Source: Brevundimonas sp. (lineage in GTDB: Bacteria; Pseudomonadota; Alphaproteobacteria; Caulobacterales; Caulobacteraceae). From it: a stretch of 64,000 nt of DNA. Numbering within the stretch: the first letter of the stretch is position 1; each line of letters starts with the position of its first letter. The notes under the pieces are model-generated. The model ran no database searches and was not told the origin of the DNA. It saw only the letters and a list, made by a program, of their open reading frames with translations. The stretch lies in the NCBI RefSeq assembly GCF_051858995.1, contig NZ_JBHYGN010000014.1:12468-76467 (forward strand), read 5' to 3'. Of this stretch, positions 1,869 to 11,920 are shown one piece after another. The position numbers and the translations under genes are program-made.

Positions 1869-2045
1869 CGCGTCCGGGCGTCAGGTCAGATGTGAGGGGA
1901 GGGCTTCTTCGCGTCTGCGAAACGGGTCCACGGCCCAACTCTCTGGCGAATCCGAGGATCACGCCGAGGCCGTTGGGCCGTTTCCCGCCTTCTGAAGCCT
2001 GTTCAGCGTATCAGCGAGCCGCTGCAGCGCCAGAGGCTGCGTTGG
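1841..2045 (-). ncRNA. Candidate structured small RNA; strand uncertain
   Basis: No credible ORF between convergent genes; perfect 9-bp stem 1931-1939/1972-1980 with inner stems; CU-rich CCCUCCCCUCAC on the minus strand; sigma70-like promoter at 2048-2076. Confidence 0.35.
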
Positions 2046-2076
2046 AAATTATGCTGCGCCGCAGCATAATCGGGAA
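2042..2076. promoter_or_regulatory. Palindromic operator overlapping two mirror-image sigma70-like promoters
   Basis: ATTATGCTGC-GCC-GCAGCATAAT (2048-2070); plus strand TTGGAA-N17-CATAAT, minus strand TTCCCG-N17-CATAAT. Confidence 0.5.
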
Positions 2077-2120: not shown

Positions 2121-4028
2121 TCAGACCCCGGCGACCGCGCGCAGGGCCGAGTGGGCGTTCGAGCCGCTCGGGATGGTGCTGACGCTGACGCCCGCCTCGT
2201 CCGGGACGGCCAGGTAGCCGGCCTTGGCCGCGGCGTCGCCCAGGCGGCGGCGCGAGGTCAGGACCACCAGCGGGGCCGAGAACAGCAGGGGCAGGACCAC
2301 CGGGGCGAACCAGGTGATCAGGTCCGGGCGGACGCACAGGCCGGCGCAGAACAGCAGGCCCACGCCCATCTGCCAGCGCATGGCGCGGAAGGCGTCGCGC
2401 CAGCTGACGCCGTCAGCGTCGCGGTCCTGGGCCTTCCAGCCGGCGTCGTGGCCCGAGGCGATCTGGATGATGGCCTTGGTGTTGGCGACCATCATGATCG
2501 GGGCGATCAGGGCGGACAGGAAGATTTCCATGGCCATGCCCTTGGCGATGCGCTTGCCGCCGCCGAAGGCGCGACGCTCGCGCGGACGGCTGAGGACCAG
2601 AAGGCCGCCCATGATCTTCGGACCGATCAGCAGCATGCCCGACAGCAGGGTGGCCAGCATGAAGGGCGAGAACTCGGGGTGAAGCAGGTAGGCGAACGAC
2701 GACCAGTCGATCGGGTACTGCAGCTGGATCACCATCCCGGCGATCAGCGAGGCCAGCCACAGGGGCGACGAGAAGTAGGCCATGAAGCCCATGGCCATCT
2801 GGACACGGTTCATCACGGTCATGCTGCGGGTCTTCAGCAGGCCCAGGTGCTGCATGTTGCCCTGGCACCAACGGTGATCGCGCTGGATGAAGTCCAGCAT
2901 GGTAGCCGGGGTTTCCTCGCAGCTGCCGTCAAGGGCGGCGGTGACGTGCACAGCCCAGCCGGCGCGGCGCAGCAGGGCGGCCTCGACCGTATCGTGGCTC
3001 AGGATGGCGCCGCCGAACGGCTCGCGCCCCGGCAGGATCGGCAGGTGAGCGGTCGAGGCGAAGGCCTCGGTGCGCAGGATGGCGTTGTGGCCCCAGTAGC
3101 TGGCTTCCGAGCCGGCCCACCAGGCCAGGCCGGCGGCGGCGACGCGACCGTAAAGGCGCACACTGAACTGCGACACGCGGGCGAACAGGGTCTGGCCCTT
3201 GATGATGGTGGGGGTGGTCTGCAGCAGGCCGATGCCCGGATTGCGCTCCATGCAGTCGACCATGCGCAGGATGGTCTCACCAGCCATGGTCGAGTCGGCG
3301 TCCAGCACCAGCATGAACGGATAGGCGCCGCCGAAACGCTGGGTCCATTCCGACAGGTTGCCGCACTTGCGCTCGATGTTCTTCTCGCGACGGCGATAGA
3401 AGACGCGGCTGTGGGCGTGGGCGCGGAAGCCCAGATAGGCCTGATGCTCCTGATCAGCCGCTTCCGGCTTGGTCGAGTCGCTCAGGACGAAGATGTCGAA
3501 GGCGTCCGAGACGCCGAGGCGGGCCAGCGAATTGTCGATGACAGCCAGGCGCGCGAAGGCGGCGCGGGCGTCCTCGTTGTACAGCGGCATCAGCAGGGCG
3601 GTGCGCTGGGTCGGCTCGGCCGGATGCGGGGCGAAGGCCAGATCATCCTGCTCACGGCCGGTCATCAGGACCCAGAAGCCGATGGCGGCGCTGGAGAACC
3701 AACAGCCGATGGCGGTGATCAGCACGCCGAAGATGACCAGCGAGGTCACTTCCAGCGAATCGAAGCCGTTGCGGGCGAACAGGGCCACCGGCGCGATCAG
3801 GGCTAGGGCGGTAACAAGCGCGGTCAGAACGGCCAGCGCCAGACGACGGCCGCCGACGTTCACAGGCGAGGTCGCCGGAGTCGGGACGTCAGGCGTCGCA
3901 TCCCAGCTGTTCAGGGACTGGCGCGGCATCGCCATCGGCGCTTCGTCCGGCAGCCAGGTCCATGCCGGGCGGTCATTCTGGCTCGACGCGGCGTTGGCGA
4001 CGTCGATCCGGATCGCTTGATTGCTCAT
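2121..4028 (-). CDS. opgH: Glucans biosynthesis glucosyltransferase H (GT2)
   Basis: MPLYNED, LDADS, LSHDTVEA and RDHRWCQGN motifs plus flanking TM helices; start moved to ATG 4028. Confidence 0.9.
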   Translation of the reverse strand: MSNQAIRIDVANAASSQNDRPAWTWLPDEAPMAMPRQSLNSWDATPDVPTPATSPVNVGGRRLALAVLTALVTALALIAPVALFARNGFDSLEVTSLVIFGVLITAIGCWFSSAAIGFWVLMTGREQDDLAFAPHPAEPTQRTALLMPLYNEDARAAFARLAVIDNSLARLGVSDAFDIFVLSDSTKPEAADQEHQAYLGFRAHAHSRVFYRRREKNIERKCGNLSEWTQRFGGAYPFMLVLDADSTMAGETILRMVDCMERNPGIGLLQTTPTIIKGQTLFARVSQFSVRLYGRVAAAGLAWWAGSEASYWGHNAILRTEAFASTAHLPILPGREPFGGAILSHDTVEAALLRRAGWAVHVTAALDGSCEETPATMLDFIQRDHRWCQGNMQHLGLLKTRSMTVMNRVQMAMGFMAYFSSPLWLASLIAGMVIQLQYPIDWSSFAYLLHPEFSPFMLATLLSGMLLIGPKIMGGLLVLSRPRERRAFGGGKRIAKGMAMEIFLSALIAPIMMVANTKAIIQIASGHDAGWKAQDRDADGVSWRDAFRAMRWQMGVGLLFCAGLCVRPDLITWFAPVVLPLLFSAPLVVLTSRRRLGDAAAKAGYLAVPDEAGVSVSTIPSGSNAHSALRAVAGV

Positions 4029-4214
4029 TCTCGGTTCAGGCCTCTGATCCCGCCACCGGCCGGGGCGCCGGACGGGATTTGCTGCATTGCAACACACCTG
4101 CAATGTCGATCACTTCCGCGCGATTTTCAATCACGCAATGGTGAAGAGGCGAAGTTTTTTTGGATCAGGCGGCGGTCAGGGCGTTTGCGGGGCGCCCTGA
4201 ACCGGGACGCAGCG

Positions 4215-11500: not shown

Positions 11501-11920
11501 ATGCCCGCTGAACCCAAGACCCGTCCCACCGACGCCTCCGTGCCGGACTTCATCGCGGCGGTGGAGAACACGCGTCGGCGCGCCGACGCGGAGGCGATCA
11601 ACGCCCTGATGACCGAGGTGTCGGGTGAGCCCGCCGTGCTGTGGGGGCCGTCGATCATCGGCTACGGCAGCTATCGCGGACCCACTGGAGACTGGCCGAT
11701 CATCGGCTTCTCGCCGCGCAAGGCCAATCTGGTTCTCTATGTCTGGCGCGACTTCGACGGGGCGGACGACCTGCTGGCCCGACTGGGCAAGCACAAAACG
11801 TCCGTGGGCTGCCTGTATGTGAACCGGTTGGACGATCTCGATCCCGCCGTCCTGCGCGAACTGGTCGAGCGGTCGGTGGCGCGTATGCGGGCCGCAAACC
11901 CCGGCGCGTCGGGTTGCTGA
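11501..11920 (+). CDS. DUF1801 (YdhG-like) domain protein
   Basis: WGPSIIGYG, GFSPRKANL, LGKHKTSVGCLY. Confidence 0.8.
   Translation: MPAEPKTRPTDASVPDFIAAVENTRRRADAEAINALMTEVSGEPAVLWGPSIIGYGSYRGPTGDWPIIGFSPRKANLVLYVWRDFDGADDLLARLGKHKTSVGCLYVNRLDDLDPAVLRELVERSVARMRAANPGASGC

Follow-up and report, generated by a model that had tools for sequence, protein, structure and literature searches.

The stretch analyzed here, referred to as the window, comprises 64,000 nucleotides of a Brevundimonas sp. contig (NZ_JBHYGN010000014.1), and our subject is a perfect palindrome near its left end, together with the intergenic DNA on either side of it. The palindrome is found within a 329-bp gap (1792 to 2120) separating two convergent genes, a setting that the initial annotation of the window had described. 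The genes are a small cox4-like open reading frame (ORF) on the plus strand (1549 to 1791; COX4_pro_2) as the left neighbor and, on the minus strand, opgH/mdoH, which encodes a glucan glucosyltransferase (2121 to 4028; NF003962, 771 bits versus a cutoff of 328). Positions 2048 to 2070 read ATTATGCTGCG-C-CGCAGCATAAT, a perfect 11+1+11-bp palindrome of 23 bp as duplex DNA; the 10-bp arms around a GCC loop that were first given are this same palindrome. Its core, TGCG-C-CGCA, occupies 2055 to 2063 between the arms ATTATG and CATAAT, which are AT-rich and stand in a genome of 68% G+C. In the left part of the gap, a hairpin, CCGGGCTGT-TCAG-ACAGTCCGG, followed by TTTTTT (1841 to 1868), is the terminator of the plus-strand cox4-like gene. 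Three Logan contigs contain the locus, and their sequence is identical.

PhaR (AniA) is a repressor that binds polyhydroxybutyrate (PHB) granules, senses PHB, and in many bacteria signals carbon storage to the rest of the cell. The initial annotation had matched the core of the palindrome, as CTGC-N3-GCAG, to its operator, and a published set of sites allows a direct comparison. The PhaR motif of Sinorhizobium meliloti is WNWD2N-YGCRNYGCR-NH2WNW, with 67 sites listed, many of them bound by His6-PhaR (PMC12542648). The palindrome contains both the YGCR-N-YGCR core (as TGC-N3-GCA) and the AT-rich arms of this motif, and it equals the S. meliloti site AGATGCTGCACTGCAGCATTA, one of those efficient in electrophoretic mobility shift assays (EMSAs), except at the central 3 bases. 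We derived a symmetrized weight matrix solely from these 67 S. meliloti sites and applied it to the complete 3.32-Mb genome (approximately 6.6 million positions), with six simulated 3.3-Mb genomes from a first-order Markov model serving as the background. Scans with exact patterns (TGCTGC-N3-GCAGCA and similar) were too crude in a G+C-rich genome and were replaced by the matrix.

With this matrix, the palindrome ranks second genome-wide at 23.5 bits. Three matches of at least 23 bits occur in the real genome, versus none in the six simulated genomes, whose maximum of 22.8 bits lies below the palindrome, and the match is therefore more than chance. Rank 1 belongs to a site immediately upstream of a gene for PHB depolymerase (phaZ; PHB_depo_C, E = 1e-94), and rank 3 is the promoter of a phasin gene (Phasin_2), where the initial annotation had suggested looking for the motif. 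Rank 6 falls in the opgH promoter region of the same window, rank 7 in the promoter spacer of the genome's true alphaR8/MmgR small RNA (sRNA; RF00519), and rank 21 upstream of the phaA thiolase gene, which adjoins phaR. PhaR itself is encoded at C2:141676-142293(-), with PHB_acc_N and PHB_acc domains scoring 107 and 64 bits. A matrix from a foreign species thus recovers the PHB regulon of this genome while ranking the palindrome near the top, which supports the operator assignment well; the palindrome is very probably a PhaR operator, as was first proposed. Upstream of the depolymerase gene, there are two PhaR boxes 72 bp apart (C1:31129 and C1:31201), the proximal one being the best match in the genome. 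As regards palindromes in general, perfect inverted repeats are not uncommon, as five distinct ones with arms of at least 10 bp are present in the 64-kb window versus about 1.2 counts per simulated 64 kb; the four others, with loops of 0 to 4 nucleotides (nt), are at 11571, 42822, 44001, and 48724 (for example, GGGCCGCTCCAGTGGAGCGGCCC and TCCCTCTCCCAATGGGAGAGGGA).

Among 276 species-level Brevundimonas genomes searched at the DNA level, 10 others contain the region, giving 11 genomes in all. In the alignment of these 11 sequences, the palindrome core is invariant, and approximately 130 nt to its left are strongly conserved. The arms of the palindrome diverge among relatives without compensation (TTCATGTTGCG versus CGCAGCATAAT) around the fixed TGCG-N-YGCA core, a pattern that points to the evolution of a protein-binding site and not of a stem. 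The conserved region contains the core of a structured noncoding RNA (ncRNA) on the minus strand at 1919 to 2052 (covariance model R1, C14:14386-14519(-), 108 bits). Within it, an invariant stretch, GCUU(U)CAGAAGGCGGGA, spans 1983 to 1998 (as aligned DNA, TCCCGCCTTCTGA(A)AGC), and a stem, GGCCCRRC...GYYGGGCC, encloses a variable hairpin. A 10-bp helix formed by 1972 to 1981 and 1930 to 1939 is 100% paired, with four covarying positions and no broken pair.

RNAalifold was run on the minus-strand versions of ten closely related sequences. The consensus has 28 pairs, with 94.8% of cells paired and 8 pairs carrying compensatory changes. Among 500 column shuffles, none reached the observed covariation score, the percentage of paired cells, or the count of compensatory cells, and a single one reached the number of compensatory pairs. 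The minus strand has 31 G·U cells, versus 2 A·C cells that would become G·U on the plus strand, and the same helices are 94.8% paired on the minus strand versus 84.0% on the plus strand. Folding the alignment independently for each strand gives -32.9 kcal/mol for the minus strand versus -22.4 kcal/mol for the plus strand (-67.7 versus -57.5 with ribosum scoring). The covariation and the G·U asymmetry place the structure on the minus strand, which supports the suggestion in the initial annotation of a leftward noncoding RNA. The invariant GGCGGG of the RNA (within 1919 to 2010) pairs with an upstream CCCGCU in the alifold consensus or with a downstream CCCGCC or CCCGUU in single-sequence folds, and these pairings may represent alternative, mutually exclusive folds.

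Among the relatives, hairpin lengths vary by amounts not divisible by three and there is no conserved ORF, so the element is noncoding. The full transcript would be approximately 205 nt long (1836 to 2041 on the minus strand; fold z = -2.1), with a putative start at about 2041 and a putative end at the hairpin shared with the cox4-like gene, the only candidate 3' structure for a leftward RNA (1841 to 1862), after which no U tract follows. A C-rich stretch, CCCUCCCCUC, lies at 1894 to 1903 within this predicted transcript. An Rfam scan of 1400 to 2600 at E of ≤10 returned only chance-level matches (radC, Guanidine-III, P31, and BTH_s19), none of them credible, and neither the 150 genomes of the order that were searched nor 22 other opgH loci gave a match to model R1.

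The element is directly downstream of opgH in all 10 homologues, whereas its left neighbor is the cox4-like gene in eight and another gene in two; the terminator hairpin at 1841 to 1868 is kept in the 8 sequences that have the same left neighbor. Brevundimonas sp. FT23042 is informative because its OpgH is 91% identical to that of our genome, closer than those of the element-bearing G009 group (82 to 84%), and its cox4-opgH order is the same, but its short intergenic gap (L083:3400-3580) has the shared terminator hairpin without the palindrome, the flanking blocks, or the RNA. Among the more distant opgH-bearing species outside the clade (63 to 70% identity), neither the palindrome nor the RNA was present. 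From this joint presence and absence, the operator and the RNA appear to have been gained or lost together as one module, with which opgH can dispense. Such behavior is more in keeping with a self-contained gene, made up of operator, promoter, and RNA, than with an obligatory 3' untranslated region (3'UTR) of opgH or a terminator. Our strain and FT23042 also constitute a natural presence/absence pair for probing the function of a newly born sRNA of the regulon.

The rank 6 match indicates that opgH has a PhaR-type box of its own. The ORF list placed this gene at 2121 to 4103, as a 660-amino-acid (aa) GT2 protein starting from a TTG at 4103, next to or inside the upstream operator, whereas gene callers on the identical contigs give 635 aa, as from the in-frame ATG at 4028, which is probably the start. 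The box, GTGTGTTGCAATGCAGCAAAT, is located at 4077 to 4097 on the minus strand, approximately 50 nt upstream of this ATG, and scores 19.4 bits, or 22.7 bits with a matrix from the EMSA-efficient subset of sites; within the genes, the best matrix score is at most 10.4 bits. In Brevundimonas, Caulobacter, and Phenylobacterium, almost every locus examined has an equivalent box of 13 to 25 bits upstream of opgH, and no such box was seen at the Hyphomonas, Bradyrhizobium, Inquilinus, or Sphingobium loci examined. The synthesis of osmoregulated periplasmic glucans (OPGs) therefore looks like a conserved PhaR target in the Caulobacteraceae, as judged by this motif conservation. The connection that the initial annotation had drawn from the palindrome, between carbon storage and the synthesis of glucans, is thus supported, by a route that it had not seen. 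None of the papers searched connects PhaR with opgH. Just before the PhaR box in the direction of opgH transcription, the region from 4104 to 4160 (minus strand) is strongly conserved in the clade, with TTGAAA-N17-GACATT and a direct repeat, GTGATTGA...GTGATCGA, and may be the site for a second regulator.

On balance, and with modest confidence, we favor the explanation that the palindrome is a PhaR operator gating an independent sRNA transcribed leftwards. The operator, predicted to be of high affinity, would overlap the core promoter of a lineage-specific, structured ncRNA of approximately 130 to 205 nt, read on the minus strand from about 2041 into the region that separates opgH from the cox4-like gene. 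Without PHB, PhaR would sit on the operator, one arm of which doubles as the -10 hexamer, an arrangement that also occurs at two PHB promoters of this genome: the phaZ promoter reads GTGATT-N17-CATAAT, with the box in the spacer and its downstream arm forming the -10 hexamer, and in the phasin promoter, the box is followed by CATAAA as the -10 hexamer. When PHB granules form, PhaR would be titrated onto them, and the RNA would then be made alongside phasin, PHB depolymerase, the alphaR8 sRNA, and, through the second PhaR box, opgH. The RNA probably acts in posttranscriptional regulation. To the right of the palindrome, a block, TGTTGCG-N3-ATGCA (2080 to 2094), has its TGTTGCG...ATGC kept in 11/11 sequences; it resembles a PhaR box with 3 additional spacer bases, lies approximately 3 helical turns from the operator center and at about -38 to -52 of the putative leftward promoter, and might serve as an additional operator or as the site of an activator. 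Relatives also have a TTGTGCG-like flanking block.

The promoter hexamers themselves leave the direction of transcription less clear. Their positions are as the initial annotation gave them, namely, TTGGAA (2042 to 2047)-N17-CATAAT (2065 to 2070) on the plus strand and TTCCCG (2076 to 2071)-N17-CATAAT (2053 to 2048) on the minus strand. A palindromic operator with CATAAT-type arms automatically puts a -10-like hexamer on both strands. A consensus promoter scan accepts only the plus-strand pair (9/12; 2 overlapping sites versus 0.1 expected in shuffles), and the minus-strand pair, at 8/12, falls under the scan threshold, with relatives at 6 to 8/12. On the plus strand, TTGGAA occurs in this genome only, the relatives having CGCACA or GCACAA (3/6), while the -10 hexamer CATAAT is retained in 6/11 sequences. 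Across the same 11 sequences, the minus-strand -35 hexamer is TTCCCG, TCGATA, or TCGGCG (3 to 4/6) and is not conserved, and the -10 hexamer is CATAAT in three, CATAAG or CATAAA in four, and CATGAA in four. The conservation that the initial annotation had proposed to look for was found for the palindrome core in all 11 genomes but for neither -35 box, and its view of two mirror-image promoters as a designed feature is not supported, since the symmetry belongs to the operator. From promoter consensus alone, the direction is undecided; we prefer a leftward promoter mainly because the conserved RNA reads leftwards from the palindrome. Readings of the flanks as general-stress extracytoplasmic function (ECF) sigma factor promoters (GGAAC-N16-17-CGTT) or sigma-54 promoters, checked by eye, were dropped because spacing and conservation did not match.

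Several observations weigh against a PhaR-gated leftward sRNA. The matrix that identifies the operator derives from a different order of Alphaproteobacteria. The leftward -35 hexamer TTCCCG is poor (3/6) and unconserved, and at the leftward -10 position, 4 relatives read CATGAA, whereas 6 of the 11 sequences retain CATAAT on the plus strand. Single-sequence folding cannot separate the strands, as the sequence from our genome folds as well on one strand as on the other, and the covariation comes from ten closely related sequences only. The C-rich stretch CCCUCCCCUC occurs in only some members of the clade and is missing from the G009 group. On the minus strand, the RNA lacks a canonical Rho-independent terminator of the sort that the genome's alphaR8 sRNA possesses. 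Because opgH transcripts meet no terminator before the palindrome, the RNA could also arise by read-through. Finally, a target search gave no conserved target of the RNA. Three candidate pairings were rejected: a 12-nt complement to the invariant stretch in the 5'UTR of a pectate lyase gene, a gene that 4 of 5 genomes with the RNA lack; pairing with the alphaR8 sRNA, for which the 10-mer involved has an invariant C·C mismatch and whole-RNA duplexfold results were no better than those of shuffles; and a 7-nt match (UCCCGCC) in the opgH leader, which is too short to count.

A first alternative, close to what the initial annotation had envisaged, is a bidirectional switch in which one PhaR complex would control the sRNA to the left and, to the right, a transcript antisense to the 3' end of opgH. 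The plus-strand pair TTGGAA-N17-CATAAT is the sole pair accepted by the promoter scan, its CATAAT is the better-kept hexamer, either arm of a symmetric operator could be used as a -10 hexamer as at phaZ, and the conserved block at 2080 to 2094 is just downstream of the putative rightward start. Yet the TTGGAA that completes this pair is private to our genome (3/6 in the relatives), conservation ends at 2094 and does not extend rightward to the opgH stop codon, a rightward RNA would have neither structure nor terminator, and an antisense transcript coinduced with opgH would oppose the box at the opgH promoter. No conserved feature argues for a rightward antisense transcript, and we regard the bidirectional switch as unlikely. 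An extended version, in which the two-way switch could also loop to the opgH promoter box 2.0 kb away and PHB status acts on periplasmic glucan synthesis at the level of initiation, by antisense, and through a linked sRNA, would be slightly less likely still.

About as improbable as the bidirectional switch is a second alternative, in which the RNA would belong to the opgH transcript as its 3'UTR, arising by read-through and perhaps by processing, and the palindrome would be a promoterless PhaR site acting as a roadblock or as a loop partner of the box approximately 2.0 kb away. The RNA is always immediately downstream of opgH, no intrinsic terminator intervenes between the opgH stop codon and the palindrome, both -35 candidates are weak, and PhaR boxes stand on both sides of opgH, all of which this alternative would accommodate. 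Wherever the direction is known in this genome (phaZ, phasin, alphaR8, and opgH), however, the box overlaps a core promoter, and the combination of a consensus-perfect operator, -10-like arms, and a conserved upstream block is promoter-like. In most opgH-bearing species, the gene has a box upstream but none downstream, and FT23042 manages without the whole module.

That the palindrome is the operator of another regulator with a similar TGC/GCA dyad is very unlikely in our estimation. PhaR binding at this site is a motif prediction from a Sinorhizobium matrix, and TGC-GCA dyads are short, but the same matrix finds phaZ, phasin, the alphaR8 sRNA, and phaA in this genome, and the extended arms of the palindrome match too. 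Although the palindrome is 51 nt past the opgH stop codon, could form a 10-bp hairpin, and has other perfect inverted repeats for company in the window, a mere opgH terminator hairpin, which the initial annotation had named as a competing explanation, or a chance palindrome without function is barely credible, given that there is no U tract on either strand, that the terminator scan makes no call, that the arms change without compensation around a fixed core, that a close relative with opgH (FT23042) lacks the palindrome, and that the PhaR score is above those of all simulated genomes.

The matrix scan also returned sites away from the PHB genes. A high-scoring PhaR box, ATATGCTGCAGCGCGGCATTG, at C9:177444-177464 lies approximately 110 nt upstream of a gene for a Ros/MucR-family regulator (ROS_MUCR, E = 9e-54), which suggests that a global regulator of surface polysaccharides receives input from PhaR. 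Additional hits above background at C9:252192, C8:187949, and C3:96287 fall in long gaps between convergent genes as defined by a crude ORF filter, and these gaps may contain small genes or RNAs that the filter missed.

To our knowledge, a single sRNA family, MmgR/alphaR8, is so far known to be under PhaR control. At the locus described here, a second, unrelated, and very young clade-restricted RNA family appears to have been recruited to a PhaR operator and is linked to a second putative PhaR target, opgH. If this is true, periplasmic glucan synthesis joins the PhaR regulon of the Caulobacteraceae. A connection of this kind is not surprising, as PhaR of S. meliloti already governs exopolysaccharide genes and an sRNA.

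The closest known system is S. meliloti mmgR, a member of the alphaR8 family (RF00519, "suhB") that is repressed by PhaR/AniA. Its operator, CAATTGTGCACCGCAGCATTA, is among the listed PhaR sites of S. meliloti, and His6-PhaR binds the mmgR box in EMSA (PMC12542648). Like mmgR, the Brevundimonas element is an orphan small-RNA gene with a PhaR box in its putative promoter, and the boxes are very similar (..GCACCGCAGCATTA in S. meliloti and ..GCGCCGCAGCATAAT in the Brevundimonas palindrome). The RNAs themselves differ. The Brevundimonas RNA has no RF00519 match in 1400 to 2600 even at E of ≤10, lacks both the conserved single-stranded 10-mer UUUCCUCCCU and the U-tailed terminator of alphaR8, has CCCUCCCCUC instead, is approximately twice as long, is restricted to about 11 Brevundimonas species, and neighbors opgH and not the FGase gene. 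The true alphaR8/MmgR/SisA-type sRNA of this genome is encoded elsewhere, at C1:96855-96934(-), the only RF00519 match above the cutoff (61.6 bits), and its promoter, TTGACC-N17-TAGCTT, has a perfect PhaR dyad, TGTGCACTGCACA, as its spacer. Homology of the Brevundimonas RNA to MmgR was rejected on these grounds, that is, the lack of a model match, of the 10-mer, and of the terminator, the different synteny, and the presence of a true RF00519 gene at another locus. The PhaR box common to the two RNAs is a shared regulatory feature only and not a sign of homology.

Carbon status sRNAs are also known from Caulobacter crescentus, namely, SisA-D (alphaR8) and the sponge CrfA (PMC12559287). C. crescentus and Brevundimonas belong to the same bacterial family, but R1 matches nothing in the Caulobacter genomes sampled. 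The invariant, purine-rich AGGCGGGA(A/G)A of the Brevundimonas RNA can base-pair with the alphaR8 10-mer except for a single C·C mismatch; as this mismatch is invariant, it is unlikely that selection preserves the stretch for pairing with alphaR8.

At the level of the operator, the resemblance extends to protein-coding genes. The palindrome has the same dyad, AT-rich arms, and predicted overlap with a core promoter as the phaP1, phaP2, SMa1961, and phaZ operators of S. meliloti, and it shares the downstream arm CATAAT or CATAAA with the phaZ and phasin promoters of its own genome. Unlike the phasin and depolymerase operators, which stand before genes for PHB proteins, it lies between convergent genes, precedes an ncRNA, and, as a perfect palindrome, is neutral with respect to direction. 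For the box at the opgH promoter, the nearest counterpart is surface polysaccharide synthesis in S. meliloti, where PhaR directly controls the exopolysaccharide genes exoH, exoL, exoY, wgaA, and wgeA (PMC12542648). In Brevundimonas, unlike in the S. meliloti exo genes, the putative target is the osmoregulated periplasmic glucan synthase OpgH and the link is one of motif conservation only, but the box at its promoter is otherwise analogous to the control that PhaR exerts over polysaccharide synthesis genes in S. meliloti.

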